From NCBI GenBank assembly GCA_041747675.1, contig JBGTES010000090.1, positions 19,582-83,581 of the forward strand: DNA of 64,000 bases, read 5' to 3'. Below, piece after piece: positions 9,797 to 33,300 of the stretch (positions within the stretch are counted from its first letter, which is position 1; the number at the start of each line of letters is the position of its first letter). Source of the stretch: Flavobacteriales bacterium (GTDB lineage: Bacteria > Bacteroidota > Bacteroidia > Flavobacteriales_F > PHOS-HE28). Both the position numbers and the translations under genes were made by a program. A model generated the notes under the pieces. It saw nothing but the letters and a program-made list of their open reading frames with translations. It searched no databases and was not told the origin of the DNA.

Positions 9797-9928
9797 GCTG
9801 CCAAATTACGCCGTGGTGTGGGGCACACGCTGTCACGTGTTGCCCATCGCCACCAACCATCCGCCAAACCACCATGGCCACCACGAGCGCAGCGAACGCC
9901 GGTGCTCCAGTACCTTCGCCGCGCGACC

Positions 9929-10001
9929 GGGCCCATAGCTCAGCGGTCAGAGCAGGGGACTCATAATCCCTTGGTCGCAGGTTCAAATCCTGCTGGGCCC
10001 A
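9929..10001 (+). tRNA. tRNA-Met (anticodon CAT), elongator-like (G1:C72 paired); tRNA-Ile2 (lysidine) cannot be excluded
   Basis: Hand-folded cloverleaf. Acceptor GGGCCCA/TGGGCCC, D-arm GCTC...GAGC, anticodon stem GGGGA/TCCCT with loop CTCATAA, T-arm GCAGG-TTCAAAT-CCTGC, discriminator A. 73 nt. Confidence 0.85.
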
Positions 10002-13232: not shown

Positions 13233-13354
13233 ATGTCCTGGTAAGCAACGCCTGGCGCCCTTTGCGGTGCGCGGGGCACAAAAATACCAGCGGGGAGAGT
13301 GCGGCGGGAGGTTCTGCGCCGGTATCGGTCCTTTCCGCACCGATCTTCGCGCAC

Positions 13355-15112
13355 ATGACCGACCCCGGACGAGGTAGGCGCATACGGCGGATCATGCTCC
13401 GTATCCTTGGGGTATTGGCCGTGCTGCTGGTCGCAGCGGCTGGTGTGGGTGCCTGGTGGTGGGCGGACCGTGGCGAGGACTGGCTCGAACGCAACGTACG
13501 CGAGCGCATCGGTCGCATGATCGACGAGGCCAGTGTGCCGGGTTATACATTCCGGATGGATGCCCTGTTGGTGGATACACGCACCGGGCATCTACGTGCG
13601 AACAACGTTGTACTCGATTTTGATGAGGTGCTGCTGGACAGCCTGCGGAGCGGGGAGTTCCGCTACCTCTTCGCAGCGCGTGCGGGCAGCATCGAGTTGC
13701 GCGGACTTTCCTTCTGGCGCCTGCTGGTATGGCGCGAGTTCCGCGTAGAGGCCTTCGAGATGCGGGAACCTGAGCTGTACTACCTCGTTGGCGGAGAGCG
13801 GGTGGCACTGTCCGCCCCCTTCACGCGGTTGCAACCGGGCGGTGGAAGGGCCATCTCGTTGGTGCGGGCGGATACGCTGATCGTGCGCGGTGCTGCTGCG
13901 AAGGTGGAGGACCTCAGCGGTTCGCTGCCTGTCATGGACCTCAGTGGCCTGGCGGTCGCCGGGTATGCCGTGCGCATCACCATGGACCAGCGGCGCAGTG
14001 GAGTGCGGCTCACGATCGGCGATACCGAACTGGGCTTCGACAGTCTGCGCACCCAGCTGCCCGATGGGGACCGATTCCACATCGGCCACACGAGCCTCTC
14101 CCGCCATGGCATGCGCGGACTGATGCGCGACATCAGGCTGATACCCGCTCCGGTGGACACCACCGATCGCACCCAGCCGCGAAAGCCGGTGATCGACCTG
14201 GCGGTGGACAGCATCACCTTGCAAGGGCTCGACATCGACCGGCTGATCGCACAGCAGGCCCTGCACATTGGCGAACTTGTGGTGCGTGGAATGCGGCTGA
14301 AGGTCGTCCTGGACAAGACCCTGCCCCCTGGGGAACCCATCACACGAGCACTGCCAGCCGCGTCCCTGCTGGCTATTCCCTTCGCCATACGTATCGATAC
14401 CCTCACCCTTTTGCGTGCTTCTGGCACCTACCATGAGCGTGACCCAGATACGCGCCGGTGGGGCCGCGTACCCTTCCGGCAGATCGAGGGGCGCTTCACC
14501 CACATCACCAATTTCGGCCCGGCCATCGTGGAGCATCCCAAGATCGAGGGTGGCTTCAGTTTGCTGCTCTTCGACAGTGCCCGGGTGAGCGGCCGATACA
14601 CTGCCGAGCTCGATGGAAGCGACCGCTTCACGGTGATGGCCACGGTCACAGACCTGCCTCTGGAGAACCTCAACAGCGCCACGCGGCCGCTGCTGCGCAT
14701 CCAGGTGAACGGTGGGCGGCTGCACCGGATGGACCTGCGCATGGAAGGCGACGACCGCCGGGCACGTGGCGATCTTGCGCTGAACTACACCGACCTGCTG
14801 GTGCGCGTGGAACCCGGCACTCCGCGTGAATTGCGGCATAGCATGTTCGGAAGTGTGCTGGAGACCATGCTGAAGGAGGCCTATGGCGGGGGTCTCAGCG
14901 CGGACCGGGAACGGAACTTCTCCATCGACCGCGACCAGAACAAGGCGATCATCACCTACCTCTGGCATGCCACGCGCGAGGGCCTTGCCCGCAACCTGGC
15001 GCCCGAGGCCTGGGAGCGGATGCGCAGCATGCTGCGTACGGATGCCGAACAGCGGCGCGAACAGCGTTCGTTGCGGAAGCAGCGGCGGGAGGAGCGCCAG
15101 GAACAGCGCTGA
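13355..15112 (+). CDS. hypothetical membrane-anchored protein (AsmA/TamB-like?), basic C-terminal tail
   Basis: N-terminal TM LRILGVLAVLLVAAAGVGAWWW, a long soluble body, and an R/E/Q-rich tail. No confident domain call. Confidence 0.45.
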   Translation: MTDPGRGRRIRRIMLRILGVLAVLLVAAAGVGAWWWADRGEDWLERNVRERIGRMIDEASVPGYTFRMDALLVDTRTGHLRANNVVLDFDEVLLDSLRSGEFRYLFAARAGSIELRGLSFWRLLVWREFRVEAFEMREPELYYLVGGERVALSAPFTRLQPGGGRAISLVRADTLIVRGAAAKVEDLSGSLPVMDLSGLAVAGYAVRITMDQRRSGVRLTIGDTELGFDSLRTQLPDGDRFHIGHTSLSRHGMRGLMRDIRLIPAPVDTTDRTQPRKPVIDLAVDSITLQGLDIDRLIAQQALHIGELVVRGMRLKVVLDKTLPPGEPITRALPAASLLAIPFAIRIDTLTLLRASGTYHERDPDTRRWGRVPFRQIEGRFTHITNFGPAIVEHPKIEGGFSLLLFDSARVSGRYTAELDGSDRFTVMATVTDLPLENLNSATRPLLRIQVNGGRLHRMDLRMEGDDRRARGDLALNYTDLLVRVEPGTPRELRHSMFGSVLETMLKEAYGGGLSADRERNFSIDRDQNKAIITYLWHATREGLARNLAPEAWERMRSMLRTDAEQRREQRSLRKQRREERQEQR

Positions 15113-15220
15113 TGATCGCCGGAAGGTGACGGCGGCTCATTCGGATCCATCGTTCAGACGATGCCCCGAGCCACCCCGTAGGTATTATTCATCTTCGCTG
15201 ACCGCAAAGACCCCCCTGCC

Positions 15221-15733
15221 GTGCACCATTCAACATCCATACTGCTGGTAGCCCTGATCCCCTTCGCAGCTTCGGCACAAAGCCTTGTTGTGAATTTTGA
15301 GGATGCGACCACGGAGAGTTTCCCGATCGCTACTGTACGCAGCATCAGCTTCGACAGTGGCGATATGCAGCTCAACCTGCTTGCTGGAACGACCCTGGCC
15401 TGGCCCATCGTGGATATCTGGTCCTATGCCTTCAGCCCACTAACGACATCGGTGGGCGATGGTGCCGTGGCGGGTATGCTGGAGATCTTTCCCAATCCGG
15501 CCTCCGAACAGGTCATCATCCGGTTCGGCGGTCTGCCCGGGGTCCATTATACGGTGGACATCTTCGACGCCAGCGGTCGCCTTGTCGCCAGGCTCTTCGA
15601 CGGCGAAGCAACGGCCGGCACCACGCAAGTGATGCTCGACCCCCGCGCGCAGGGTATGGCCACATCAGGCCTGTACGTCTGTCGTGTCACTTCCGCCGAT
15701 GGCGTGCGCACATCACCCATCATGATCCAATGA
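15221..15733 (+). CDS. small secreted protein with T9SS C-terminal sorting domain
   Basis: GTG start. Signal peptide HHSTSILLVALIPFAASAQS. C-terminus EIFPNPASEQVIIRF...YTVDIFDASGRLVARLF...GLYVCRV is a Por_Secre_tail. ATGA overlap with the next gene. Confidence 0.6.
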   Translation: MHHSTSILLVALIPFAASAQSLVVNFEDATTESFPIATVRSISFDSGDMQLNLLAGTTLAWPIVDIWSYAFSPLTTSVGDGAVAGMLEIFPNPASEQVIIRFGGLPGVHYTVDIFDASGRLVARLFDGEATAGTTQVMLDPRAQGMATSGLYVCRVTSADGVRTSPIMIQ

Positions 15734-16662
15734 TGATGCCCAGCATGAACAACCTCCGCACCATCGGCATTCCGCTGGCCGTCGCATTCACCCTGCAGGC
15801 CCAGGCCCAGATCGAGCACCGCGTGAACCTCACCGATGGCAGTGTGATCGCCCATCCGGTGAACACCATCGACAGCATCACCTTCAACACCGATGGGGTG
15901 CCATACATGGAGATCCATTTCACGGATGCCAGCACCGTCGAGGTGGAATTGGCAGAGGTGGATACAGTTTCCTTCGGGACCATGAGCACATGGACCTTCA
16001 CCGATCCACGCGACGACAATGAGTACACCGCGGTAATGATCGGTGACCAGTGCTGGATGGCCGAGAACCTGCGCTACCTGCCGGGCGTGGTGGGTCCTGC
16101 TTCCGGCCATGCGACCGTGCCCTTGTACTACGTGCACGGCTACAATGGCACCAATGCGAGCACGGCCATGACCACCCCCAACTACCAGACCTACGGCGTG
16201 CTGTACAACTGGCCTGCCGCCATGCAGGGTGCCGCGAGCAGCTCCTCCAACCCCAGCGGGGTTCAGGGCGCGTGTCCGCCTGGTTGGCACCTGCCCAGTG
16301 ATGAGGAAGTGAAGCAACTGGAGATGTTCCTCGGCTTGACCCAGGCGCAGGCCAACAACACCGGTTACCGGGGGACCAACCAAGGCAGTCGTCTGGCTGG
16401 CAATGCCCCGCTGTGGGATCCGGGGGCGCTTACCGATCATGCCCTCTTCGGCAACACCGGCTTCGATGCACTGCCCGGTTCGGTGCGTTCGCTGGGGGCT
16501 TTCGGCAACACCCTGGGAGAGCAGTTCGCCCTATGGACCGCCACGGACAATGGCCCCACTAACGCGTGGTACCGTGGCCTGCACTACACGCAGACCGGTG
16601 TGCTGCGCACCAGCATCCAGCGCGAATATGGCATGTCCGTGCGCTGTGTGTGTGATCAATGA
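15730..16662 (+). CDS. Fibrobacter succinogenes major paralogous (FISUMP) domain protein
   Basis: CWMAENLRYLPG...YNWPAAM...CPPGWHLPSDEEVKQLEMFLG...GFDALPGS...WTAT...VRCVCD matches the TIGR02145-type signature. Has a signal peptide. Confidence 0.8.
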   Translation: MMMPSMNNLRTIGIPLAVAFTLQAQAQIEHRVNLTDGSVIAHPVNTIDSITFNTDGVPYMEIHFTDASTVEVELAEVDTVSFGTMSTWTFTDPRDDNEYTAVMIGDQCWMAENLRYLPGVVGPASGHATVPLYYVHGYNGTNASTAMTTPNYQTYGVLYNWPAAMQGAASSSSNPSGVQGACPPGWHLPSDEEVKQLEMFLGLTQAQANNTGYRGTNQGSRLAGNAPLWDPGALTDHALFGNTGFDALPGSVRSLGAFGNTLGEQFALWTATDNGPTNAWYRGLHYTQTGVLRTSIQREYGMSVRCVCDQ

Positions 16663-18347
16663 CCTCCTTCAACGGAACTTTCTCCAACAGAACATCCCCC
16701 TCGAAAATGACCACGATCAGTACGCTGCTCGCGCTGCTATCCTGCAGCACCATCGCCCTGGGCGCTACCGCCCAAGGCACATACAGCAACACGCTCCCCA
16801 CCATGCAGGGCTATGGCCTCACGAGTTGGACCGCCTTCACTTTCCCGGCCACACCGGCCACCAACGGCGAGGCGGAGCTCTCCTTCCAATGGCTGGGTTG
16901 CTACCAAGCGGGCTTCAGTGGTACGGGCATCGCGATCGAGCTGCGTATCGGGCCCAGCCTCTACATCCCGGTCCACACCGAGACCGGCATCACCGTATCC
17001 TGCTCCTTTCTGAGCCGTATTGTGACCATTACCGAGAGTCAGCTTTCCCTGGCCATGGACTACGGGGGCGGCACAAGTGTGCAGGGTCGGTTGCGCTTGA
17101 CCGATGCCTGCCCCGCCGGTGTGGGCTGTTCCTTCTACAATGATCCCGTGGTCCAGAATTTCACCCTGGCCTACACCGTGCAGTCGGCCGGTTTCAGTTC
17201 CCCGGATGCTTCCATCTGCCCCGGAGGCGTGGTGCAGTTCAACGATGCCAGCCTCAACGTACCCACCAGTTATGCCTGGTCCTTCCCCGGAGGTATGCCG
17301 GATACGAGCAACATCGCCAACCCCGTGGTACAATACACAACGCCCGGAGCTTATCCGGTGACCCTTGAAGTGACCACCGCGGATGGCCCAAGCTCGATCA
17401 CGCACCCGGCCTTCGTGACCGTGCACCCCTTGCCCGATGCGTTCGCCGGTCTGGACCAGACGATCTGCGCAGGAGCCACGGCACAGTTGCAGGCCAGTGG
17501 TGGCGCCAGCTACCAATGGATACCAGCCAGCGGCCTTTCCGATGCCACCATCGCCAACCCGGTCGCGACCCTCACCAACTCCACGACCTACACCGTGATC
17601 GTCACCTCAGCCCAAGGCTGTGAAGCTTCGGACGCGGTGCAGATCACCGTGACACCGCTGCCAGAGATAGAGGTACAGGCTGCAAGCACCACGATCTGCG
17701 GAACGGATACCTTGAGCGTAACGGTCAGCGGTGCCACACTCTACACCTGGTCGCCGAACCTTTTCATCAGCAGCAACACCGGGGCTGCGGTGGAGGTATG
17801 GCCACCCGCTTCCTTCGCGTGGACGGTGACGGGAACGGACCTGAACGGCTGCGTGGGGGTCGATACGCTGGAGGTGACCGTTGTTCCCGTGCCGCCCACG
17901 CCCTTGATCACCTGGGCGGACATGGTCCTTTCCTCCACACCTTCCGAGGAGTACCAATGGTACCTGGATGGAGTGCCTATTCCGGATGCGACCGCACAGG
18001 ACCACACACCGCTTGTGAACGGGAACTACACCGTGGTGACCACCGATGAGAACGGCTGTAGCGCCACCAGTGATCCCTACTTCTTCGGAAGCACCCAGGT
18101 TCTGGATCCATGGCATACGAAGCCTGCGATCTTCCCGCAACCAGTGTCCGACGTGCTGATCGTGGTCGGTGTGCCGCACGGCTCATTCTATCGACTTCTT
18201 GATGGCCAGGGACGGCTTGTGCAGGAAGGCAGGATGCAAGGCCAAAGAGCCGAGATCGATGTGCGTAGCTCGGCGCCTGGCATGTATGTGTTTCACCTGC
18301 TTTCACCGGATGGCAGCCACAGCGAACACCGCGTCATTAAACAATGA
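16659..18347 (+). CDS. PKD-domain protein with T9SS C-terminal sorting domain
   Basis: PKD-like segment FNDASLNVPTSYAWSFPGG...PGAYPVTLEVTTADG. C-terminal tail IFPQPVSDVLIVVG...YVFHLLSPDGSHSEHRVIKQ. The ATG overlaps the upstream stop (ATGA); an alternative ATG is at 16707. Confidence 0.7.
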   Translation: MTSFNGTFSNRTSPSKMTTISTLLALLSCSTIALGATAQGTYSNTLPTMQGYGLTSWTAFTFPATPATNGEAELSFQWLGCYQAGFSGTGIAIELRIGPSLYIPVHTETGITVSCSFLSRIVTITESQLSLAMDYGGGTSVQGRLRLTDACPAGVGCSFYNDPVVQNFTLAYTVQSAGFSSPDASICPGGVVQFNDASLNVPTSYAWSFPGGMPDTSNIANPVVQYTTPGAYPVTLEVTTADGPSSITHPAFVTVHPLPDAFAGLDQTICAGATAQLQASGGASYQWIPASGLSDATIANPVATLTNSTTYTVIVTSAQGCEASDAVQITVTPLPEIEVQAASTTICGTDTLSVTVSGATLYTWSPNLFISSNTGAAVEVWPPASFAWTVTGTDLNGCVGVDTLEVTVVPVPPTPLITWADMVLSSTPSEEYQWYLDGVPIPDATAQDHTPLVNGNYTVVTTDENGCSATSDPYFFGSTQVLDPWHTKPAIFPQPVSDVLIVVGVPHGSFYRLLDGQGRLVQEGRMQGQRAEIDVRSSAPGMYVFHLLSPDGSHSEHRVIKQ

Positions 18348-18536
18348 TGGATGACCCTGTTCAGGTGATCGTAGCGATCAAAGGAACACGGGTCTGCAGC
18401 ACTGCCCGAAATCGGGTGGAGCGTCATCGCCCAGAATGATCGACGTGGATGCTGTCGGCTCACTCGTTCATGACCGCACCACCGCATAGCTGAACTTCGC
18501 GACACACCGACGACCGGCATCAAAGATCTCCGCCCT

Positions 18537-20474
18537 GTGCAACGCACCCTTCTCCTGGCCGGTCCGCTGCTTCTGGTGTTCGCCTGTGGCGGCAATGGCG
18601 GCGATCGTGGGGTCACGCTGCGCGGTGAGGAGGACCCGCCACGCTTCAAGGCCGAGATGGATTCCGCACAGGAATACATGCGTGCCGGCAAGGTGGATAA
18701 AGCCGAAGCGCTGGGCCGGTCCATCTATGAACGCACGCTTGCCGAGCCTACCTTGTTGAGCCAGCGGATCACCATGTTGTCCTTGCTGGGGCACATCATG
18801 CAGCGCCGCATGATGACCGACTCCGCCCATGCCCTGTTCCAGGAGGGCCTCCATTTGGCGCGGTCCATCGCTGACACGGCCGCCATCGGCACCATGTGGC
18901 TGAATGTGGGTGTGGTGCTGGAGGAGAAGGGTGATTATGAAGGAGCGTTGGAAGCCCAGTTGAACGCTTTGCGCTGGAAGGAACTGGTGGGTGAGGATCG
19001 GGTGTTGGCACGTGTGCTGCACAATCTGAGCGTGCTCCATTGGCGGCAGGACAGCATCGAGCAGGCCATGCGCTTGATCGAACGCAGCATCGCCATCAAG
19101 CGCATCCACGGCATGCGCGATCTGCCCCTGAGCCTTAACGGCATGGGGCTCCTGCTGATGGAACTCGGCAGGCTTGATACGGCCCTTGTTGTCCTGAAGG
19201 AGAGCCTCGCCCTCGAGGACAGCATCAACCTTGGCGCCGAACGCCAGATCCAGGTGTTGAACATCGGACTGGTCTTTGAACGAATGGGCCAGCTGGACAG
19301 TGCTGCTCTCTACTACACGGAGGGTCACCAGATAGCGGAGGCGAACAACGACCCCTACGTGATGATCCGCTCGCTCTTCGGCTCAGGCGATGTGCTGCGC
19401 GCGAAGGGCCGATATGCGGAAGCGTTGTCATTGCTGGACAGCAGCCTTGCGCTGGCCGGCCGGGTCGGTTCCCTGGAGGACATGAAGGAAGCGCACATCT
19501 CCCTGGTGGTGCTGCACGAACACCTGGGCCACGCGCAAGCTGCCCTGGACCATTTCCGGATGTATCACCACCTGAGTGATTCACTCATGAACGCGGAGAC
19601 CGGTGCCGCCATGGAAGAGTTGCGCCTGCGCTACGACACCGAAAAGAAGGACCGCGAGAACCAGGACCTGCGTGCCACGGCGGAACTTGCCGCACTGCGC
19701 GCCGCACGCGATCGGTGGATCGCTGTGGGCATGGGCCTGGTGGCGATCAGCCTGACCGTGTTCGGTTGGGCCATGGCCCAACGCAACAAGCAGCGCGCGC
19801 GGCAACGCGAGGCGGAACTGGAGCAACAAGCACTTCGGCTACAGATGGATCCGCACTTCCTGTTCAATGCGCTCAATACCATTCCGGGCTTGTATGCCAG
19901 CGGCGATCCGGCAGTGGCCAACGACCATGTGGGCCACCTCTCCAAATTCCTGCGCATGGTATTGGAGACCAGCCGGCGACGCACCATTCCGCTGGCCCAG
20001 GAGATCGAACTGGTGGAACACTACCTGCGCATATGCGCCAACCGCCGGCCGGACAAGTTCACGTGGGAAGTTCAGGTGATGCCCTACGTCAGGCCCGAAC
20101 GACTGGCGGTGCCACCCATGCTCATCCAACCCGTGGTGGAGAACGCCTTGGAGCACGGCTTCCACGGCCTGGCGAAGGGGCATCTGAGGGTTTTGGTGGA
20201 CCTGGCGGGAAGTGTGCTACACGTGGAGGTGGCGGACAATGGCATCGGTCACAAGGCAGCGGAGCAGCGCCCTTCGCGGCGCAACGGCCGCTCCATGGGC
20301 ATCGACCTCGTGCGGCAGCGGATCGTGCTTTTCGATGAACTGGCTAACTTCAGCGATGCCGTGCAGGTGCATGATGGATCTTCCGGGGACCCATCGCGTC
20401 CGGGCACAACGGTCACCCTGCGTTTCAGGCCACAACATTTGACCGAACATGATGAGGCTCGCGATCGTGGATGA
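18537..20474 (+). CDS. sensor histidine kinase, TPR-repeat sensor with LytS/YehU-type kinase core
   Basis: GTG start. Lipobox LLVFACGG, about 330 aa of TPR-like repeats, one TM segment (WIAVGMGLVAISLTVFGWAMA), His_kinase motif DPHFLFNALNTI, and an HATPase region. Confidence 0.8.
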   Translation: MQRTLLLAGPLLLVFACGGNGGDRGVTLRGEEDPPRFKAEMDSAQEYMRAGKVDKAEALGRSIYERTLAEPTLLSQRITMLSLLGHIMQRRMMTDSAHALFQEGLHLARSIADTAAIGTMWLNVGVVLEEKGDYEGALEAQLNALRWKELVGEDRVLARVLHNLSVLHWRQDSIEQAMRLIERSIAIKRIHGMRDLPLSLNGMGLLLMELGRLDTALVVLKESLALEDSINLGAERQIQVLNIGLVFERMGQLDSAALYYTEGHQIAEANNDPYVMIRSLFGSGDVLRAKGRYAEALSLLDSSLALAGRVGSLEDMKEAHISLVVLHEHLGHAQAALDHFRMYHHLSDSLMNAETGAAMEELRLRYDTEKKDRENQDLRATAELAALRAARDRWIAVGMGLVAISLTVFGWAMAQRNKQRARQREAELEQQALRLQMDPHFLFNALNTIPGLYASGDPAVANDHVGHLSKFLRMVLETSRRRTIPLAQEIELVEHYLRICANRRPDKFTWEVQVMPYVRPERLAVPPMLIQPVVENALEHGFHGLAKGHLRVLVDLAGSVLHVEVADNGIGHKAAEQRPSRRNGRSMGIDLVRQRIVLFDELANFSDAVQVHDGSSGDPSRPGTTVTLRFRPQHLTEHDEARDRG

Positions 20475-21201
20475 TGAGGCACCGGCCCGCGCCAACCTGC
20501 GCGCCGCCCTGGCTGGTATTCCGCTGGAGGTGGAGGTGATCGGCGAGGCCCAAAGCGTTGCAGAGGCCATCGTGCTCATCAACAACGCCAGGCCCGATGT
20601 GGTGCTGCTCGACATCTGGCTGGATGATGGCACCGGCTTCGATGTGCTCGACCAGGTGGATCATGACATGACCCGCGTGGTCTTCGTCACCGCCTTCGAT
20701 CACCATGCGGTGAATGCCTTCAAGCACGGCGCCCTGCATTACCTGCTGAAACCCGTGGTGCGCGCCGATCTGCAGGAGGCCCTGGAACGTGCCGCGGCCG
20801 CACCGGTGTACACCACCGAACATGTGGACCATGCCCGCCGCGCCCTGCTGGACCGCATCATCATCCCCACGGCCGAAGGCTTCCACGTGCTTACGCCGCA
20901 TGAGATAGAGCGTTGCGAGAGCGATGGCAACTACACGCGGTTCCACCTGCTGAACGGCGATCGCGTGATGGCATCACGCACCTTGAAGGAGTACGAGAAC
21001 CAATTGGTGCCCTTCGGATTTATGCGGGTCCATCTGTCACACCTGGTGAACATGGCGCAGGTGCGGATGTACCTGCACCGCGATGGCGGGACCCTGGTGC
21101 TAGCGAACGGACAGGAGGTACCGGTGAGCCATCGCCGACGGAACGAAGTGGTGGAAGCTCTTGGCCGGAAAGCCGCCAAAGGTGGGCCTTCCTCCCTATG
21201 A
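20449..21201 (+). CDS. LytTR-family response regulator
   Basis: REC domain (MMRLAIVDDE...VLLDIWLDDGTGFDVL) plus LytTR domain (IIIPTAEGFHVLTPHEIERCESDGNYTRFHL...). Overlaps the HK gene by 26 nt. Confidence 0.85.
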   Translation: MMRLAIVDDEAPARANLRAALAGIPLEVEVIGEAQSVAEAIVLINNARPDVVLLDIWLDDGTGFDVLDQVDHDMTRVVFVTAFDHHAVNAFKHGALHYLLKPVVRADLQEALERAAAAPVYTTEHVDHARRALLDRIIIPTAEGFHVLTPHEIERCESDGNYTRFHLLNGDRVMASRTLKEYENQLVPFGFMRVHLSHLVNMAQVRMYLHRDGGTLVLANGQEVPVSHRRRNEVVEALGRKAAKGGPSSL

Positions 21202-21443
21202 GCGTGCCTGTTCTGCCGGCTTCCTTCTGGCCAACGCTCCCTGATCGCTCGTGGAGAGTCAGGGTCACTGGCATTCGCTGATGCACCTGAACCACCAAAG
21301 TGTGGAACCCCTGTCCCGATCCCTCCCAAGGGAGCGTGGTGCGGCCGCCTCGTTATTCAGACCAACACCTGCCGGGTATGGGGGATCGAGCCTGGCCGGT
21401 TAAATGCTTGGTTTTGGGATATCCACCAATTGACCCAGTTGCC

Positions 21444-22052
21444 ATGAGAATGACCACGACCCTGCTGCTATGTCTGGTGCTTGCCATCGCGGTCCGTGCA
21501 CAGACCACCCACAACCTATTCGTAACGGACTTCGAATTCACTCCTGCTGTGATCGATGCGGTGCAGGGTGATTCGCTCCGCATCCTGCCGATCGACCCCG
21601 GACACACTTTCACGCAGGTGAGCGAGGAGACATGGAACGCCAATGGGAATACCCCTTCCGGGCAGTTCCAGTTCGAATTCCTGCAGGACACGGTCACGGT
21701 CGAGTTGACAGGGTCCGGCATCATCTATTATGTGTGTTCCCCCCATGCGAGCACGGGTATGAAAGGGATCGTGAATGTGGAATTGGCCGCCAACATCGCC
21801 GATCATAGTCCGCTCCGCCCTTCCATCTTCTATCCCAACCCCGCATCGGAGGTGATCTGGATGCGCGATGCGTCTTCCGATGCGATGCACGTGGACATCG
21901 TGGATGTGGTGGGCCGCGAGTCCGTGCGGATGCAGGTGCTCGGTACTTCGCCGCTCTATGTGGGTGACCTGCCCGCCGGTTTGTACCTGTTACGGGTGAT
22001 GGACCGCGGCGGCAACGAACTGCAACGCCAGCAGTTGGTGGTGGCGCGCTGA
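21444..22052 (+). CDS. cupredoxin (plastocyanin/azurin-like blue copper) domain protein with T9SS C-terminal domain
   Basis: Signal peptide MRMTTTLLLCLVLAIAVRAQT. Type-1 Cu ligand pattern H(DPGHTF)...YYVCSPHASTGMKG (C-x2-H-x4-M). C-terminal tail IFYPNPASEVIWM...LYLLRVMDRGG. Confidence 0.7.
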   Translation: MRMTTTLLLCLVLAIAVRAQTTHNLFVTDFEFTPAVIDAVQGDSLRILPIDPGHTFTQVSEETWNANGNTPSGQFQFEFLQDTVTVELTGSGIIYYVCSPHASTGMKGIVNVELAANIADHSPLRPSIFYPNPASEVIWMRDASSDAMHVDIVDVVGRESVRMQVLGTSPLYVGDLPAGLYLLRVMDRGGNELQRQQLVVAR

Positions 22053-22224
22053 GGTCATATGGATCGGAGCCTTGAAGGTTGTTACCACTTCCTCAGGCTC
22101 CACTCTCTAAAACATATTGGGCCCTTTGGCTGGGCCGGGAACACCGGTGCCTGAGCGCTTGCTTCCCGTGGTGGATCGCTTCTTGGCCAGGTGATCCGAG
22201 GGGTTGATCTTGCTCTAAAACGCC

Positions 22225-24705
22225 ATGGGCATGCGAGGGCATATCGCTGGTATTCTGGTCTTCCTTTTCATCCCCTCCACGATCACTGGACAGCGGGTGG
22301 TCCCATTGGACACGGGAGAGACCATCATGGCGCTAGGCGTATTTGCCCTGACCGATTATCAGGGTTTCCTGGTCGTAGGCGGATCATTCCATCAGTTCCT
22401 CGGACATGAGCGGGTGAACCTACAGGCCTGGGATGGAACAGAGCACCACGATCTGCCCGGTGCCTTCGCAACGCTGGCGAACCGGGTGAGGGCCATGGTG
22501 GTGTATGAAGGCGATCTTATCGTGGCGGGCACCGAACCAGCCTTCGGGCACGTGGCCCGGTGGGATGGGACAACATGGAACGCGTTGGCGTCGGGTCTGT
22601 CGGCACCGGTATTCTCCCTGGCCGTGCACAATGGTATGTTACATGCCGCTGGGGAAAGCGGGAATGTATGGCGATGGCAGAGTGGTGTATGGGAACAGTT
22701 GGGAAGTGGGTTGGGAGCCCCGGTCCTCGCCCTTTGTGTCCATGGAGACGTGTTGTATGCGGGCGGTGAATTCACAGCCACGAGCAGTGGCATCACCGGG
22801 CTGCACCATATCGCCCAATATGATGGTGACGGCTGGACCCCTGTTGGTCCCGGCCTGAATGGTGTGGTACACGCGATGCAGAGCGATGCCGAGGGTCTTC
22901 TGATCGGGGGTGATATGACCGCGACCGCCGACCAATCCCTGGCGCTGGCACATTGGACCGTGTTCAACGGGACGGGCTATCTGTCGAAGCCCTCGGTAAA
23001 AGGAGGAGGGCCTGTTACGGGATTCTACCGGATATCCGATGGAAGGTTGCTGGTAGGTGGTTCCCAGCACACGCTGGTCATGAAGGAAGATGAGGTGGTG
23101 GGCAGCTTCCGGTTTTCCCGTATGCACGCCGCTCAGGAGTATGCGGGGAGCACTGTTCTCGCAGGGCGTGGCTCCATGGCGCTGGCCCATACCTGGACCA
23201 ATGGGATCGGCCGGATGATCGAAGGCACGATCGTGGCCGACCTCGAGCTTAATTCCATCCGCGCCATGGTCAGTCCCTTCCCAGGCGCCTTCACCGACCA
23301 TTGGTCGAACGAGCCTGGTTTCGAGGTGCCCCAGGGAGAAGACACACACTCCATCTACACCACGATACCATGGATCATCGGGTTGGCCGATGGTAGTCCT
23401 GTGGGTTTCACGCCGGCCACCTTCCAATCACAGGGTACATGGCCGCGCTACCCGTGGGCAGGACCCAATGCGGATGCGGTAGATGACGGTTTCTACGAAC
23501 GCTATCACCGCGTGTGGAAGTTGGATCGCGCCATGGTGCAGAACCACATCGCCCTTTGGCAGGACCCCGGTTATGAAATGCCGGAGCCCATTGCCAGCTG
23601 GCCGGGCAATGGCGATGTTTCCAACGGGGAGCCAGCGCTGCTCGCCCCATTCATGGATGTGAACGGGGACGGCATCTATGATCCCTGGTCCGGGGACTAT
23701 CCCATCATCCGCGGCGACCAAGCGGTGTATGCCATTATGCATGCGGAGTGGGTGTCGCAATGGGGCGGCATGGCGCATCCTGAGGTGGATATCCATGCGA
23801 TGTACCACGTGTATCATCCTTTCAACCAGCCCGCGTTGGATGGCGTGGTCTTCGTGAACTACCGGTACGTCAACCGTTCATCGCAGACCTATGAGCAGGT
23901 GCGCTTCGCGCAGTACATCGATGCGGATATCGGGTGCTTTCAGGATGATCTTGCGGGCTGTGATTCCACACGTAATGTCATCTATGCTTACAATGGCTTC
24001 GATTTCGATGCCGACTGTTCCACTCAAACGGGTTATGGCCCAACGCCGCCGGCCCAAGGGGCGGTCTTCTTGAATGAGCCATTGCGCTCGCACAGTGTGA
24101 TAACGACCAGTTTTGTGCCTACTGGATCGGCACTTATGGACCTCATGTTCGGCACCATCAATGGGCAGCCGTTCGACCTGGGAGGCTCCACCACAAATTA
24201 TATGTTCCCTGGCGGGGATCACATGGACCAATTCAACCCAGCTCTCATCGACCGGATCTCCATCGGCGCCACCGGCCCTTTCACCCTGGCTCCCCAGGAT
24301 ACCTTGTGCATCGATCTGGCCTTTGTCTACGCACGCGCAGGCAGCGGAGGAGCGCTTGCGAGTCGTGATGCTCTGCTGACCCGTGTGGATTCCGTTCGCG
24401 CCTTCTACATGTCACATGCCCTGGCATGTGCGGAAGAGCCGATCATGGTGGGGATCGCGCATCCACACGATATCATGCCAGATGTACGGCTCTTCCCCAA
24501 TCCTGCCACGCACGCCTTCCAAGTCGTCGCAGGTAAGCCGATCCAACGCGTCGCTGTACTGGACATGCAAGGGCGCCTGGTCCGTGCGGTCCACACCTTC
24601 GGCGAACGGGTGTTCGTCCCCTCCGGTGATATGGCGCGCGGCACCTATGTGGTGCAGGTCTTCTTCACGAACGGAAGCCGTGCATTGCGTGTAGTGTTGG
24701 AGTAG
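22225..24705 (+). CDS. large secreted hypothetical protein with T9SS C-terminal sorting domain
   Basis: 826 aa with signal peptide. C-terminus RLFPNPATHAFQVVAG...VLDMQGRLV...GTYVVQVFF is a Por tail. Confidence 0.65.
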   Translation: MGMRGHIAGILVFLFIPSTITGQRVVPLDTGETIMALGVFALTDYQGFLVVGGSFHQFLGHERVNLQAWDGTEHHDLPGAFATLANRVRAMVVYEGDLIVAGTEPAFGHVARWDGTTWNALASGLSAPVFSLAVHNGMLHAAGESGNVWRWQSGVWEQLGSGLGAPVLALCVHGDVLYAGGEFTATSSGITGLHHIAQYDGDGWTPVGPGLNGVVHAMQSDAEGLLIGGDMTATADQSLALAHWTVFNGTGYLSKPSVKGGGPVTGFYRISDGRLLVGGSQHTLVMKEDEVVGSFRFSRMHAAQEYAGSTVLAGRGSMALAHTWTNGIGRMIEGTIVADLELNSIRAMVSPFPGAFTDHWSNEPGFEVPQGEDTHSIYTTIPWIIGLADGSPVGFTPATFQSQGTWPRYPWAGPNADAVDDGFYERYHRVWKLDRAMVQNHIALWQDPGYEMPEPIASWPGNGDVSNGEPALLAPFMDVNGDGIYDPWSGDYPIIRGDQAVYAIMHAEWVSQWGGMAHPEVDIHAMYHVYHPFNQPALDGVVFVNYRYVNRSSQTYEQVRFAQYIDADIGCFQDDLAGCDSTRNVIYAYNGFDFDADCSTQTGYGPTPPAQGAVFLNEPLRSHSVITTSFVPTGSALMDLMFGTINGQPFDLGGSTTNYMFPGGDHMDQFNPALIDRISIGATGPFTLAPQDTLCIDLAFVYARAGSGGALASRDALLTRVDSVRAFYMSHALACAEEPIMVGIAHPHDIMPDVRLFPNPATHAFQVVAGKPIQRVAVLDMQGRLVRAVHTFGERVFVPSGDMARGTYVVQVFFTNGSRALRVVLE

Positions 24706-24824
24706 CGAACTACCCGTAGCCGCTTCAAGCGCCGTTTTCATCAGATCACGCCTTCCGGTCCATACTCTTGCTCATAGTGTGATCCGCAAAGCGATGCGCC
24801 ATCTTTGAGCACCTAAACCACTCC

Positions 24825-25040
24825 ATGAAGAAGCACCTCCCTATTGCCGCCATTCTATTCCTGGGTCTCACGGCCTGTGGCAACGACAGTGAACAGCACA
24901 ATGAAGCACCACCACCCGCCGCCACGGAAACGGACAAGGGCACCAAGGTCCGGGTTGGTGGAGATGGTGTGAACGTGGAGACCGACAAGGTGAATATCGA
25001 CATCTCCACGGACAGCGGTTCGGTGGAGATCGGTGATTGA
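24825..25040 (+). CDS. small lipoprotein (hypothetical)
   Basis: MKKHLPIAAILFLGLTACGND is a lipobox. 71 aa and low complexity. Followed by a strong terminator hairpin. Confidence 0.4.
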   Translation: MKKHLPIAAILFLGLTACGNDSEQHNEAPPPAATETDKGTKVRVGGDGVNVETDKVNIDISTDSGSVEIGD

Positions 25041-25064
25041 TCGGGCGACACGTCAGCTAGATAG

Positions 25065-25095
25065 AGGCCCGCGACAGCTGTCGCGGGCCTTCTCA
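25065..25095. terminator. bidirectional intrinsic terminator hairpin
   Basis: aggcccgcgacagc-tgtcgcgggcct is a perfect stem of about 11-12 bp, lying between the convergent genes ending at 25040 (+) and 25123 (-). Confidence 0.5.
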
Positions 25096-25122
25096 TGTTC
25101 CAGTGCGGTCGAGGCGGCAAGG

Positions 25123-25473
25123 TCACCCCTTCGCTGCCTCCACCATCGCCTTTACCGTCTTCGGTGCGCTGCCGATGAACACCTGCTTGCCTATCACGAT
25201 GGTGGGGCGTTTGAGGAAGGTGTATTCTTCGAGAATGTACTTCCGAAAGTCCATCTCGGTCAGCTTCATCTCGTTCAGGCCCATGCTGCGGTACTTCCTG
25301 GCGATCTTGCTGAATAGGGCCTCGTAGCTACCTGCCAGTTTCTTCAGTTCATCGAGTTGGGCTGCGGTGATGGGCTGGGTCTTGATCTCCTGCAATTCAA
25401 ATTGATTGATGTTGGGGATCTGGCCCAGGATGCGCTGGCATGTGCCGCAGTTGGCGAGGTGGTAGATCTTCAT
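25123..25473 (-). CDS. ArsC/Spx/MgsR-family protein (thioredoxin-fold, arsenate reductase-like)
   Basis: 116 aa. N-terminus MKIYHLANCGTCQR is family-typical. Confidence 0.65.
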   Translation of the reverse strand: MKIYHLANCGTCQRILGQIPNINQFELQEIKTQPITAAQLDELKKLAGSYEALFSKIARKYRSMGLNEMKLTEMDFRKYILEEYTFLKRPTIVIGKQVFIGSAPKTVKAMVEAAKG

Positions 25474-26610: not shown

Positions 26611-27063
26611 CTAAGGTTTCACCCGGCCGAGGTCGAGGAACACCTCCTTGAGATGGTCGAAATCGGCATCCGTGGTCAAAAGCGTGGCTTTGGTCACTGC
26701 TGCGGTGGCTGCGATCCACAGGTCGTTCTTGCCCATGTTTCGGGAGCTTAGCCCCAAGGTGTAGCCCGCAAGCTTGCCCTGGCTGAACGCATCGATGCGC
26801 GCATAGGAGGTCATCAGCGGATCGTCGGCGTGGTTAATGTCGATGATCACGTAGCGCCTAAGCAACTTCTCGAGCTTCTCCTTCTTCTGCGCACCCCACC
26901 CGTTCTGCTCAGCAAGCGAAAGCAGTTCGCCCATGGTCACTGTTGAGATCATGACCAAGGCATCATCGGCCCCGAGCTTGTGTTCGGCCTGAAGGCGCTG
27001 CCACAGCGGATGGTCCTTCAGCGCGGCAAGGACCACGTTCGTATCCAGCACATAGCGCCTCAT
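26611..27063 (-). CDS. vapC: PIN-domain ribonuclease toxin (VapC-like)
   Basis: MRRYVLDTNVV...DALVMISTVTMGEL...NDLWIAATAAV...LLTTDADF carries the conserved acidic PIN residues. Confidence 0.8.
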   Translation of the reverse strand: MRRYVLDTNVVLAALKDHPLWQRLQAEHKLGADDALVMISTVTMGELLSLAEQNGWGAQKKEKLEKLLRRYVIIDINHADDPLMTSYARIDAFSQGKLAGYTLGLSSRNMGKNDLWIAATAAVTKATLLTTDADFDHLKEVFLDLGRVKP

Positions 27064-27983
27064 GCGGTCAGTTGGCTCAGCAGCACATCGAAGTCCTCAT
27101 CACCGGGCCATTGGCCCACCACACTTTTCGCTTTGTTGCGCCCACCCTTTTCGCGCAGTTGCCGTTCGATCTGCTGTTCGGTGTGCTCGCCCTTGCGCTG
27201 CTTCGCGAAGTAGCGCTCACCTTGTTCCGCCGGATGCAACTGTTGCACTTCGATGGTGCGGCGCCCGCCCGGCTTGAAGTGGACCATGCCGATGACCGTG
27301 GCCTCCTTCGTCCAGAACTGTGCGACCTCGGTCCGGTCCAGATCGTCGGACAGGAACCCATCCATGGTGCCATCGGGACCCTTGATCCTGATGCGTGAGC
27401 TGCTGTGTTGCAACAGGTCCACGGTCCCCTGCAGCACGATCCGCTCCGGTTCGGGAAGTGTGTCCTCCAGTTCGGCGATGCGCTTCAGGGAGATGCGTTC
27501 AATAACGAGGCCTTTCGTGCTCCCTTCGTTGCTGATGCGGAACGCCTCTTCGGCTCCACGGAACACTTTCTTGAAGGCCTTCAATTGGTTGAGCAGCGGC
27601 TTGTCAAGGAACTCCTTGCTGCCCTCCTCGTCCAGCGCATCATTGAAGGTGTTCATGAACAGCGACATGGGCGTCTGTTCCTTGAGCTTCAGCTGCTCTT
27701 CATGGCGAAAGGCATCGAACTGGATCCCGGTGAGCGTTTCGCCCAGGGTCTGGCATTCCACCATCAAACGGGTACTGCCCTTTTTCACACCAACGAGGTC
27801 GATGCGTAAGGCATCATCCAGGCGCGCCTGCTTCCGGCCGGCGGTGATGCTCACGCCCCGCAGCCGCAACTGGAGCGCTCCCTCGGCCACCTTCGAGATG
27901 ATGTCCGCAAGCTGCGCCAATCGCCGAAGGTCGATCCTGCCGTTGCCTTCGATCGGCTTGTCTATTTTGATCTCGTACTTCAT
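27060..27983 (-). CDS. hypothetical 307-aa protein with a VapB/DUF2281-like C-terminal tail; putative atypical antitoxin/partner of the PIN toxin
   Basis: 4-nt ATGA overlap with the downstream PIN gene. C-terminal ...KSVVGQWPGDEDFDVLLSQLTA resembles the G-x-W/I-x-x-DDFD-x-x-L tails of PIN-binding antitoxins. The N-terminal ~270 aa is uncharacterised. Local GC is lower than the flanks. Confidence 0.5.
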   Translation of the reverse strand: MKYEIKIDKPIEGNGRIDLRRLAQLADIISKVAEGALQLRLRGVSITAGRKQARLDDALRIDLVGVKKGSTRLMVECQTLGETLTGIQFDAFRHEEQLKLKEQTPMSLFMNTFNDALDEEGSKEFLDKPLLNQLKAFKKVFRGAEEAFRISNEGSTKGLVIERISLKRIAELEDTLPEPERIVLQGTVDLLQHSSSRIRIKGPDGTMDGFLSDDLDRTEVAQFWTKEATVIGMVHFKPGGRRTIEVQQLHPAEQGERYFAKQRKGEHTEQQIERQLREKGGRNKAKSVVGQWPGDEDFDVLLSQLTA

Positions 27984-30332: not shown

Positions 30333-33300
30333 CTACTCTTTGGCCACGCGTTCCACCGCGAGGGTCTCCCCACGATCATCGACCACCTTTAGCAGGTAGC
30401 TTCCAGCAGCCAGTTGTTGCATGGGGATCGTGACCGGTCCGGACCCTGTACCAAGGGCCTGGGTGATCACCGCCCGTCCCGAGGCGTCCAGCAGGATGAT
30501 GTGCGCCGCCGCGACCTGCAAGGTCCCCAGGTCCACGAAGAGCAGAGCGGAGGTGGGGTTCGGGAAGATGCGCAGGATACCATGCGTACATGGCTGGGCC
30601 GTGGCCATGGGCAGTTCGGCAGTGGTGCCGTCCAGGTCCACTTGCAGCAGGCGGTAGTAGATCGGGGCCGGCAACATGGGATCATCATCCCTGAATTCAT
30701 ATGCGATGATCTGGTGGCTGTGCCCGGCAGCCTGCACATCGCCAACCTTCGTCCAGGTGAAAGTATCGCTGCTGCGCTGTACCACGAAGTGGCTGCTGTT
30801 CTCTTCGCTGGCGGTGGACCACCGCAGCCGCATTTTGCCATTGTCGCAGGCGGCTTCGAAGTGGGTCAATTCCACTGGCAACGGCACATTGTTATGTGTT
30901 CCGGAACCGTCAAGGTAACCCGGCATATAGCGCCATGGACCATATACCTGGCCGGTGATGGCGGTGACAGGATCGTACCGGACACGGGCGCGCACTTTGG
31001 TGGCGGTAATGCCTGCACCGCCTACGGGCTTGTCCACAAGCGCCTTCAGTTCAACGCCGGACACGGCACCGGCCACGAGCGCAGATTGTTGTGATGTGAA
31101 AGCAGTGCTGTTGTTGATCGAGTTGTTGCTTCCCGTGCTGAAGGCCTGTCCCTGGATGCGTGACTCCCACACCATGCGGGTTCTTGTCCGGCCCAGGAAG
31201 GGGCGGGTGAACAGACCGGCGCCGAATTGCGGTTCGGGTATGTTGCTGGCCTTGATCGGTGTGACCAGATCCGTTTCGTAGAGGCGCAAGTTCGCACGCG
31301 CCCATGAGATGCTTCCGTTTCCATTAAAGATGTGAATGCGCTGGTTCAAGGGTATTCCCGATATCACATCACTACAACCATCGCCATTGATATCTCCAGC
31401 GGAATCCACGAACTCGCCACCTTGAAATTGCAATTGATGGGTCCCAGAAAGTCCTGTAGGTCCGCCCAGGTATAAAAATGCCCCAAAGAAAGATCCGATC
31501 GCCACGTCACTGTACCCATCACAATTCACGTCACCAGCTCCGGCGACCGAGGCTCCGAAAAAGGACGCCCCATTTAGAATGGTGAGATCAGGGAGCACAC
31601 TGATCCCTGTTGAGGAACCGTAGTGAATGTTGGCCAGGTAGCCAAATGAAGCGATCACCACGTCATCATACCCATCGCCATTCAGATCACCAGCCCCACA
31701 AAGTGTCGCGCCGAATCCCGGAACTGATCCATGTGTCTGGTATGCAGGGTCGCCATTGATGATCACACTTGGGGTGGGTGACAAGCCGGCCGGTCCCCCC
31801 AGGTACAGGTAAACATGTCCATCGTATTGCGGCGCGGAGGATGCTGCAACCAGTACATCGCTGTATCCATCGCCGTTCACATCACCGGCACCGGCTACGC
31901 CTTGTCCATAGTTCGAGCCAGGGATATGCGGGGAATCGTAAGGGGCGCTGGTCCACGCCGGTGTCGCGCCCAGCCCTGATGGACCGCCGAGGAACAAATA
32001 TGCAATGCCCGCAGCTCCATTGTGGATGCGCGCTCCTATGACAACGTCACTGTAACCGTCCGCATTGACATCGCCTGCACTGGCCACACTGATGTCGCTG
32101 TTCTGTAGGCCAGTACTGAAGGTCCAGCTTGGCGTTGTAGCTGGTCCGGTCGCTGAACCATGAAAGACTTCGACCTCGTGCGGGCTGTTACGCCCAATGA
32201 TGATGTCACTGAAGCCGTCACCATTCACATCCCCAGCCCCTGTCACGCAGTTCCCATATCCACCGGGAAGTGTTCTTGTCCACAACGGGGTGGCCAGTAA
32301 GCCGGTGGGTGACCCACTGTAGAGCCGCACCGTACCCCCGACGCTCATGCCAGCTATGACGTCACCATAGCCATCCCCATTGACATCACCCGCGCCCTTA
32401 GCTGACCATCCGAAATCCCCTGGCCCCGGATAGCTGTAGACAGACACCGCCAATGGCATCGCCGCAGAACCAAGGAAGAGCCTGGCGCGACCTTCGTTGT
32501 TCTGGCCATTGTCCCACTGCGGCACCCCCACCAGCACGTCGCTGAAACCATCGCCATTCACATCCCCGGCACTTGCGACGGCGGCGCCATTTCGAGCTCC
32601 TGCCTGGTTCAGTTCGTTCTGCCATTCCAAGGTCAATGCGGCGGTCGCATTCCCAAAGAAGGTGTAAGCTTTCCCTTCCTGCGCTTGTCCATTCGTATGC
32701 TCCGGAGCACCGACCACCAGGTCGCTGTATCCATCGCCATTCACATCGCCTGCACATGCAAGAGCTTTCCCGAGTTGTGCCTGGGCCGTCGGGCTGTCAT
32801 AGGTCCACGCTGCCGCTGCCGCGACTCCTCCCGCTGAGCCGAGATGCACGATCACCCGCCCATCGTTGGCCAGCGTGCTCGCATAGAACGGAATACCGAT
32901 AGCGACATCGGAATATCCATCGTTGTTCACATCCCCTGCGCTGGAGACCGCCCAGCCCGTCTGGGAGGACGCCTGGTTGCTCTCCATGGTCCGTGCGGCG
33001 GTCAAGGCAAGGCCGGTCGCGCTACCGTGGTAGACGAAGGCGCGGCCCTCGTTGGTCTGGCCATTGTCGAAGAGTGGTGCACCCACGATCAGGTCCGAGT
33101 AGCCATCACCGTTCACATCTCCTGCACTGGCCACACTGAAACCGTAGCGCGCAGCCGTCTGGTTGCCTTCCCCGATCCAGTCGGGAGTGGCGGACAGGCC
33201 CGTGGCGCTACCATGGTAAACGAACACGGCACCCTCGTTGACCTGGCCATTGGAATACTGGTAAGCGCCAACCACCACATCGCTGTATCCGTCACCGTTC

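Follow-up and report, generated by a model that had tools for sequence, protein, structure and literature searches.

A possible unit of one T9SS cargo gene and its own TPR-kinase/LytTR pair in a Flavobacteriales gene neighbourhood

To our knowledge, almost nothing is known about how individual cargo genes of the type IX secretion system (T9SS) are regulated. Here we describe a run of genes encoding putative T9SS cargo proteins at positions 15221-24705 of a 64,000-nt stretch of contig JBGTES010000090.1 (assembly GCA_041747675.1, Flavobacteriales bacterium; hereafter the window), among which lie the genes for a sensor histidine kinase with tetratricopeptide repeats (TPR) and for a response regulator with a LytTR DNA-binding domain. 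We propose, with a probability that we put at roughly 55%, that the region forms an ordinary neighbourhood of the chromosome, with one T9SS cargo gene and its own TPR-kinase/LytTR pair as its functional core. The cargo gene concerned encodes a protein of 562 amino acids (aa) with PKD domains, here called PKD562, which accompanies the kinase and the regulator in related genomes, and the same gene order recurs in two further modules of the window, both preceded by operator-like repeats. The neighbourhood as a whole (~61% GC, between rpoN and arsC) gathers genes for T9SS-exported proteins.

All components of the locus are of known kinds that carry names in the databases, and the locus itself is ordinary and annotatable; its two leads are the recurring module and a cupredoxin (a blue-copper protein) that would be extracellular. 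The only characterised pathway in this field, PorXY-SigP, controls the secretion machinery (PMC5445135). If the modules are real regulatory units, they would provide a function for a very large family of orphan two-component systems in the Bacteroidota, and their operator repeats would offer a simple handle for mapping regulons. Members of the tailed blue-copper family are widespread in metagenomes, and where they are located and what partner they have would bear on the extracellular redox chemistry of the Flavobacteriales; an extracellular position, if true, would imply that electrons are transferred or copper is handled beyond the outer membrane.

PKD562, the kinase and the regulator stay together in related genomes

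Five related loci in uncultured Flavobacteriales/Bacteroidota (RpoN 76-84% identical) came from scanning reference genomes with the kinase, from scanning metagenomes and from looking up homologues of the cupredoxin; loci outside the window are referred to below by an L and a number. Domains were called with Pfam and NCBIfam/TIGRFAM profiles and judged at curated cut-offs. In four of the five related genomes, rpoN and arsC flank the region, and in L006, the contig of which begins inside the region, it adjoins arsC; wherever the contig reaches, the interval is bounded by rpoN, arsC or both, and the gene sets within it differ. L001 encodes three other tailed proteins followed by PKD562-kinase-regulator twice in tandem, with 30 nt separating the second PKD562 copy from its kinase. 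The order in L002 is a homologue of the 826-aa protein (Table 1), kinase, regulator, DUF4890, esterase and PKD562, and L011 has kinase, regulator, a tail-bearing protein at the position that the esterase occupies in L002 and L006, a small LTXXQ-like protein and PKD562. In L006, a tailed protein ends 12 nt before the kinase, which is followed by regulator, esterase and cupredoxin. The kinase orthologues in L001, L002, L006 and L011 are 59-68% identical.

Each of four genes, namely those for the 170-aa protein, the FISUMP protein, the cupredoxin and the 826-aa protein, is missing from most of the related loci, and the first two have no counterpart in any of them; the esterase (PF00756) present in related loci is absent from the window. 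Only the kinase, the regulator and PKD562 stay together across the five related genomes. Moreover, pairwise identities of PKD562, of the kinase and of the regulator all give one grouping, in which the window pairs with L001 copy 1, L002 pairs with L011, and L001 copy 2 is the outgroup. Because the grouping is the same for all three genes, they were duplicated together before the lineages split and have been together since. This evolutionary stability indicates that PKD562, the kinase and the LytTR regulator are probably the functional core, with the remaining cargo genes, as far as gene content tells, interchangeable neighbours of it.

Two sister modules with operator-like repeats

Searching the window with the kinase and the regulator uncovered two further modules (Table 1), bringing the occurrences of the order cargo/TPR-kinase/LytTR in 64 kb to three, counting the studied one. 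Kinase and regulator of module 2 overlap by ATGA. The regulator of module 3 is truncated by the window end, its REC domain being visible, and the 329-aa protein that heads this module has a tail-like C-terminus by our own hidden Markov model (HMM) only (E 2e-4) and fails TIGR04183. All three kinases consist of a signal sequence, a TPR region, a single transmembrane (TM) helix and a kinase core, the core being of the HisKA_2 type in the sister modules, in contrast to the PF06580 core of LytS-type systems and of the studied kinase.

Direct repeats with a 21-bp period, each followed by a downstream box, precede the cargo genes of both sister modules (CGGTCGTTCACCCG and CGGTCATTCACCCG with box TAGCTTGTGGTC in module 2; TCACCCG and CCACCCA with box TACCTTGTGGTC in module 3). 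The two boxes read TAsCTTGTGGTC, both stand 38 nt after the second repeat, and exact matches occur nowhere else in the window. The sister kinases are only 38% identical and their two cargo proteins are unrelated, so that the common blocks look constrained, since neutral DNA would not keep them. LytTR-output systems typically control adjacent genes via ~9-bp direct repeats ~21 bp apart, as AgrA, ComE and BtsR do. Positions 56209-56286 and 60561-60634 therefore look like candidate LytTR operators with a promoter element, and the 21-bp spacing, being the usual LytTR layout, supports the idea of regulators that act on the adjacent cargo promoter.

Our proposal draws on the domain content, gene order, synteny and co-duplication seen in this analysis and on the operator-like repeats of the sister modules; the perception of a signal, the binding of the promoter by the regulator and the secretion of the products are predicted from these. 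The TPR domain would perceive a signal in the periplasm, upon which the kinase would phosphorylate the regulator; the LytTR domain would then control the transcription of the adjacent cargo operon by binding direct repeats at its promoter, and the products would leave by Sec and subsequently, via their C-terminal domains, by the T9SS to the cell surface or the medium.

Table 1. Coordinates of the genes of the studied region and of the sister modules with their upstream elements.
Feature	Position	Strand	Content
170-aa secreted protein	15221-15733	+	signal peptide, ~65-aa N-domain, T9SS type A sorting domain (residues 89-170)
310-aa FISUMP protein	15730-16662	+	signal peptide, no T9SS tail, TIGR02145/PF09603
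562-aa PKD562	16659-18347 (likelier start ATG 16707)	+	signal peptide, 4-Cys N-domain, PKD/Ig-like, T9SS tail
645-aa sensor histidine kinase	18537-20474	+	TPR region ~40-390, TM 394-414, His_kinase PF06580, HATPase_c
250-aa response regulator	20449-21201	+	REC PF00072 (65.4 bits), LytTR PF04397 (57.9 bits)
202-aa cupredoxin	21444-22052	+	type-1 (blue) copper protein, plastocyanin/pseudoazurin type, T9SS tail; PF00127, TIGR04183
826-aa protein	22225-24705	+	signal peptide, beta-propeller ~23-330, ~400-aa domain 340-745, T9SS tail
Direct repeat CGGTCGTTCACCCG / CGGTCATTCACCCG	56209-56222, 56230-56243	+	21-bp period, upstream of the 56304 cargo gene
Box TAGCTTGTGGTC	56275-56286	+	downstream of the 56209/56230 repeats, upstream of 56304
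Module 2	56304-60551	+	SBBP beta-propeller T9SS cargo (56304-58016), TPR-TM-HisKA_2 kinase (58045-59859), REC+LytTR regulator (59856-60551)
Direct repeat TCACCCG / CCACCCA	60564-60570, 60585-60591	+	21-bp period, upstream of the 329-aa gene
Box TACCTTGTGGTC	60623-60634	+	downstream of the 60564/60585 repeats, upstream of 60654
Module 3	60654-63999	+	329-aa secreted protein (60654-61643), TPR-TM-HisKA_2 kinase (~61802-63586), REC regulator (~63586-63999)

Alternative explanations for the linkage

Several observations weigh against a dedicated cargo/kinase/regulator unit, and most of them speak for an alternative that we consider possible but doubtful, namely that cargo genes and TPR-kinase/LytTR pairs are simply very numerous in this genome, that their adjacency follows from density and shared ancestry, and that the regulator has its targets elsewhere. 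Tailed genes account for 7 of the ~48 genes in the window, and a run of at least four in seven genes arises in ~11% of random orders. No operator was found for the studied module: the sequences upstream of 15221, 16707, 18537, 21444 and 22225 hold no operator-like repeat or common motif, and a search of 18 orthologous regions for direct repeats spaced by 20-22 bp or for common motifs gave nothing convincing. The place of PKD562 with respect to the kinase varies: it is upstream of the kinase in the window, in L001 and probably in L006, but in L002 and L011 it lies ~1.8 kb downstream of the regulator. The five comparison genomes are fairly close relatives, so the linkage may partly reflect shared ancestry. 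Neither kinase nor regulator of this kind lies near the distant homologue of the PKD562 N-domain in L015, and three other Bacteroidota plasmid loci with a PF06580-kinase/LytTR pair have no annotated T9SS cargo gene upstream, and therefore the cargo/kinase/LytTR pattern is not universal. The chance of finding a tailed gene directly upstream of all three pairs in the window, a statistic computed after the pattern had been seen, is P ~0.005 with the weak third tail counted and a weak P ~0.07 with strictly validated tails only. Finally, no T9SS machinery genes (PorK/L/M/N, SprA/Sov, PorU/V) were found among the window genes scanned, export being assumed; a T9SS is usual in the Flavobacteriales, the order label of the nearest relatives.

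Mere proximity does not sit well, however, with the tandem co-duplication of PKD562, kinase and regulator and the congruent divergence of all three, nor with the short spacing between cargo gene and kinase in L006 and in the second L001 copy. The presence of three such modules in one window, at the first of the two P values given above, and the constrained operator-like repeats before both sister-module cargo genes likewise argue for the unit of one cargo gene with its own pair.

A bolder version of the proposed unit would be a Flavobacteriales class of cargo-dedicated TPR-kinase/LytTR regulators, each wired to one cargo through a LytTR operator and with the TPR domain perhaps monitoring its own cargo in the periplasm as a form of secretion feedback, next to a truly extracellular family of tailed cupredoxins; this combination strikes us as improbable. 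Still less probable is the idea that the cargo serves as input, in which case the TPR domain would bind the neighbouring T9SS cargo or its C-terminal domain in transit, or the surface PKD protein would capture an external ligand, making the system a secretion-feedback device or a co-sensor. Such a role would suit the predicted extracytoplasmic placement of the TPR region in each of the three kinases, the general ability of TPR domains to bind peptides or proteins, the occurrence of one specific cargo gene with each kinase, and the fact that from module to module the cargo differs and the TPR region has diverged; the same data, however, fit simple output regulation.

The least credible option is the one put forward in the sequence-only reading, in which the whole 9.5-kb stretch is one island whose cargo genes, those for the cupredoxin and the 826-aa protein included, form the regulon of the embedded system: the genes at 13262-25040 are indeed all co-oriented, the cupredoxin of L006 comes after the orthologous kinase-regulator-esterase, and the 826-aa homologue of L002 stands directly before the kinase, but the cargo genes come and go among the related loci with only PKD562 staying with the pair, distant cupredoxin homologues (35-48% identity) lie in other contexts that lack an adjacent TPR-kinase/LytTR pair of this kind, 826-aa homologues (38-41% identity) adjoin DUF5723 (PF18990) genes and regulators of other types, the units stand 172-243 nt apart, and the upstream regions have no common motif, TGGAACNNCTGTCCCGA being unique to the cupredoxin gene. 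Given this variable synteny and these unrelated distant contexts, a regulon that spans the whole island lacks support; what is supported is the narrower link between one cargo gene and its own kinase-regulator pair.

T9SS tails and layout of the region

The four proteins to which the sequence-only reading had assigned Por/T9SS C-terminal domains all pass TIGR04183 (cut-off 23 bits), with 39.0 bits at 15221, 27.0 at 16659, 28.6 at 21444 and 27.5 at 22225, each match being placed at the extreme C-terminus of the protein. PF18962 (cut-off 27 bits) passes in two of them (31.0 bits at 15221 and 28.5 at 21444) and fails in the other two (21.0 at 16659 and 19.5 at 22225). The HMM checks that had been suggested alongside (TIGR04183, TIGR02145, PKD and cupredoxin) were run, and all of these domains were found. 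By inspection, the tailed proteins have Sec signal peptides with a hydrophobic core, an A-x-A-like site and usually a Gln at +1, and signal-like N-termini are seen in all six secreted or sensor proteins, the kinase included. The predicted cleavage sites of the exported proteins read ASA/QS, AQA/QI, ATA/QG, VRA/QT and TG/QR. A Gln at +1 has been reported for secreted proteins of Bacteroidota, in which it is cyclised to pyroglutamate.

In their Sec signal and C-terminal sorting domain of ~70-80 residues, these proteins resemble known T9SS type A cargo such as the gingipains of P. gingivalis and the enzymes and adhesins of F. johnsoniae. Unlike usual cargo of this type, their passengers are a 65-aa mini-domain, a rare four-Cys domain, a type-1 cupredoxin and a propeller with an unassigned 400-aa domain, and their secretion is predicted. 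In characterised systems, the C-terminal domain is the signal for translocation across the outer membrane, followed by PorU cleavage and attachment to anionic lipopolysaccharide (PMC5445135).

An HMM built from the four tails, followed by TIGR04183, identified three more TIGR04183-positive genes in the window, at 30333-34688 (-), 49096-51057 (+) and 56304-58016 (+), and one weak candidate besides. The first encodes a protein of 1451 aa that has FG-GAP repeats, repeated segments related to XAC2610 and a T9SS tail, and the second a 653-aa protein combining a validated T9SS tail with a region related to the deiodinase family (NF038285, 71 bits, below cut-off). With 7 of ~48 genes tailed and P ~0.11, the cluster is real as a description and not statistically remarkable; the density on which the notion of a cargo-gene island had been built is unexceptional for the window.

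The run of co-oriented genes that had been noted from the sequence is borne out, all convincing genes at 13262-25040 lying on the + strand, while "island" in a compositional or mobile sense does not apply. GC is 0.61-0.63 within the region and 0.56-0.63 over the rest of the window, staying flat into the flanks. No integrase or transposase was seen among the scanned window genes, no long repeats were found flanking the region, and a repeat search over 15000-25200 returned chance-level repeats only; in composition, mobility genes and tRNA or repeat boundaries, the region shows none of the marks of a genomic island. Around it lie ordinary chromosomal genes (rpoN, a tRNA, an aminoacyl-tRNA synthetase, RND efflux genes and transporters), and an Rfam scan of the window gave a single match, the tRNA gene at 9929-10001 (+; 76.3 bits).

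Within the region, three junctions are loose, with gaps of 190 nt (18347-18537), 243 nt (21201-21444) and 172 nt (22052-22225), and at least four transcription units are therefore plausible, namely a three-gene cluster, the kinase-regulator pair, a stand-alone cupredoxin gene and a stand-alone beta-propeller gene. Consensus scans for sigma-70 promoters and intrinsic terminators yielded fewer hits than in shuffled sequence.

Among the related loci, one apparent direct-repeat hit, in L001, was rejected because it is in fact a duplicated intergenic segment of ~75 nt. The segment (L001 5650-5725 and 7843-7915) is duplicated nearly exactly after two paralogous SBBP/T9SS genes and holds a short inverted repeat (ATGAGC...GCTCAT).

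The sensor kinase and its regulator

The kinase matches PF06580 with 73.4 bits (cut-off 25.2) and HATPase_c with 28.0 bits (cut-off 26.4), and TPR_12 is present. It has a single strong hydrophobic segment with the TPR repeats before it, the TPR region thus being predicted to be extracytoplasmic, and its N-terminus ends in ...LVFAC, which by inspection is lipobox-like; a Pfam scan of the kinase gave no match to the multi-pass sensor domain 5TMR-LYT. The regulator gene starts inside the 3' end of the kinase gene, with an overlap of ~23-26 nt. Its product does not reach the equivalog models for BtsR (132.5 versus 246 bits) or LytR (77.9 versus 375 bits), and exact-sequence look-ups with either start codon returned no match. 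These domains agree with the earlier description of a TPR sensor kinase with a LytS-type core and a LytTR regulator in the middle of the run.

With its LytTR output, the pair is akin to LytS/LytR, BtsS/BtsR, YpdA/YpdB and AgrC/AgrA, here in the form of a PF06580 and HATPase_c core and a REC+LytTR regulator that overlaps downstream. Whereas the LytS/BtsS sensor is a multi-pass 5TMR-LYT domain, the kinase described here would sense through an extracytoplasmic TPR array held by a single TM helix. TPR-containing sensor kinases of Bacteroidota also include FimS of P. gingivalis, which controls surface structures; the TPR region of our kinase matches the FimS model NF053520 weakly (47.6 bits versus a cut-off of 600), and kinase core and regulator type differ between FimS/FimR and the pair studied here. 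PorX/PorY/SigP likewise is a Bacteroidota two-component system connected with T9SS-related genes (PMC5445135). The PorXY genes, however, lie at separate loci, and PorX has no DNA-binding domain and acts via a sigma factor of the extracytoplasmic function (ECF) type to control the secretion machinery genes, whereas the pair described here consists of adjacent genes, has a LytTR DNA-binding output and lies next to cargo rather than machinery genes.

The three-gene cluster

The gene for the 170-aa protein, which has a GTG start and encodes the signal peptide MHHSTSILLVALIPFAASA/QS, is the first of a tight three-gene cluster. The second encodes the FISUMP (Fibrobacter succinogenes major paralogous domain) protein, recognised as a secreted partner at 15730 from the sequence alone and confirmed by TIGR02145 (100.8 bits, cut-off 41.65) and PF09603 (112.7 bits, cut-off 33.9). 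Its N-region and the 170-aa protein have a short motif in common (E 0.002), and no solved structural relative of the FISUMP protein was found.

ATGA overlaps are present in the DNA at 15730-15733 and 16659-16662, and both had been taken to imply co-translation. For the first junction this stands: the candidate FISUMP starts (15730, 15733, 15736 and 15745) all lie at most 15 nt from the upstream stop, and there is no earlier in-frame start, so that the tight coupling holds whichever is used. For the second it is doubtful, as the homologues favour another start. In an alignment with four homologues from three other genomes, the 16-residue extension of PKD562 from ATG 16659 is not conserved. Conservation sets in with the signal peptide encoded from ATG 16707, and a start there would put 44 nt between the FISUMP gene and PKD562; the ATGA at 16659 is probably not the true PKD562 start.

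PKD562 matches PKD_4 (46.3 bits), PKD and Ig_7 in addition to its T9SS tail. Its N-domain (16767-17213, residues ~37-185) has four cysteines and matches nothing in Pfam; among 1.84 billion representative proteins it has just 24 relatives (E <= 0.001), either at the N-terminus of proteins of ~500-700 aa or inside larger ones. A separate homologue search with the N-domain gave no matches, and a metagenome scan with the PKD562 alignment was swamped by generic PKD motifs, the N-domain being present only in L011-L015. The single-sequence structure model of the N-domain reached a pLDDT (predicted local distance difference test) of 30 and is useless.

The cupredoxin

The prediction of a cupredoxin fused to a T9SS tail holds, since the protein passes both PF00127 (Copper-bind, 24.9 bits, cut-off 21.2) and TIGR04183 and its copper ligands are intact. 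H54, C98, H101 and M106 (Cys-x2-His-x4-Met) align with the copper ligands of pseudoazurins (3tu6, 2jkw and 1bqk), and all four are invariant in 40 homologues of 30-75% identity. The equivalog models for pseudoazurin (TIGR02375, 34.9 versus 109.85 bits), plastocyanin (TIGR02656, 20.9 versus 87.85) and halocyanin (TIGR03102, 20.3 versus 93.8) are not reached, and the protein is thus a cupredoxin of a family of its own, one that would work in the manner of these three without being orthologous to any. In a large protein collection we found 64 homologous clusters, nearly all of ~200 aa with PF00127, PF18962 or both, which JGI names "plastocyanin" and NCBI "plastocyanin/azurin family copper-binding protein" or "T9SS type A sorting domain-containing protein"; as the clusters are already named by domain, the fusion of cupredoxin and tail is captured by automatic annotation. 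From these features we infer a copper-binding, plastocyanin-like protein that would be exported via the T9SS and belong to a widespread stand-alone family.

The fold and the four-ligand set are those of pseudoazurin and plastocyanin. Classical members of these families carry electrons in the periplasm or the lumen and have known partners, in contrast to the family described here, whose T9SS tail implies predicted export past the outer membrane and which has no conserved neighbour. The homologues of 35-48% identity adjoin dnaE, AhpC-type redoxins or aspartate/glutamate racemase (Asp_Glu_race), and no conserved neighbouring redox enzyme was found in related or distant loci; with such unrelated neighbours, the genomic context gives no clue to the redox partner. 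Literature searches for a cupredoxin or plastocyanin with T9SS/type IX secretion returned nothing on such proteins. The lipid-modified Neisseria azurin Laz was once thought to be surface-exposed, which has been refuted for gonococci (PMC6277709), so that the literature searched offers little precedent for a small cupredoxin that is truly extracellular.

The cupredoxin gene is probably monocistronic. A conserved non-coding motif, TGGAACNNCTGTCCCGA, at 21303-21319 (+), ~125 nt upstream of its start, occurs once in the window and is found identically upstream of the L006 orthologue (4271-4287) and in part in L008 (~9870-9885), its distance from the start codon being ~125-140 nt across the three genomes. 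A sigma-54 promoter upstream of the cupredoxin gene (TGGCCGG-N-TGC) was dropped as a candidate, because its -12 GC is not conserved in L006 and L008 and, as a second ground, because a LytTR regulator is no sigma-54 activator.

The 826-aa propeller protein

The AlphaFold model of the 826-aa protein (pLDDT 86.3) comprises a propeller, a mixed domain of ~400 residues and the tail. Fold searches with this model returned propellers only, with Bacteroides hybrid-sensor domains and PorZ on top and WD40 propellers close behind; since these WD40 propellers are functionally unrelated and score nearly as well, the similarity is at the level of the fold only. The likeness to the hybrid two-component sensors BT4663/BT4673 and to PorZ thus concerns the propeller fold alone, the middle domain having no match. 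This middle domain (23236-24468, residues ~338-748) is modelled with a pLDDT of ~90 and has invariant Cys/Asp/His motifs, among them WPGNGD-x-SNGEP and GCDST, and a DxDxDG-like loop; a profile search found no sequence relative of it in Pfam or the PDB. About 30 full-length homologues of the protein exist. The public NCBI (PGAP) call is 792 aa long and starts at Met35, which removes the predicted signal peptide (22225-22329); the longer form is favoured by the Logan call and by the homologue alignment.

Neighbouring genes

Upstream of the region, 13262-15112 (+) encodes a protein of ~575-615 aa that matches no Pfam or NCBIfam model and has a TM helix at its N-terminus; it is kept at 56% identity directly beside rpoN in L001 (1121-2872). 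Between the gene for the 826-aa protein and arsC lies a 71-aa open reading frame (24825-25040, +) with a lipoprotein signal (LTAC), which is also called on the Logan contig L005. A PIN-domain gene at 26611-27983 (-) has an ATGA-type overlap with a 307-aa gene without a family match, and the two, possibly toxin-antitoxin-like, are kept next to arsC/DUF1801 in L005 and L009. At the 5' end of the window, from which it runs off, 2-5041 (+) encodes a large bacterial alpha-2-macroglobulin-like protein (MG2, A2M, bMG10).

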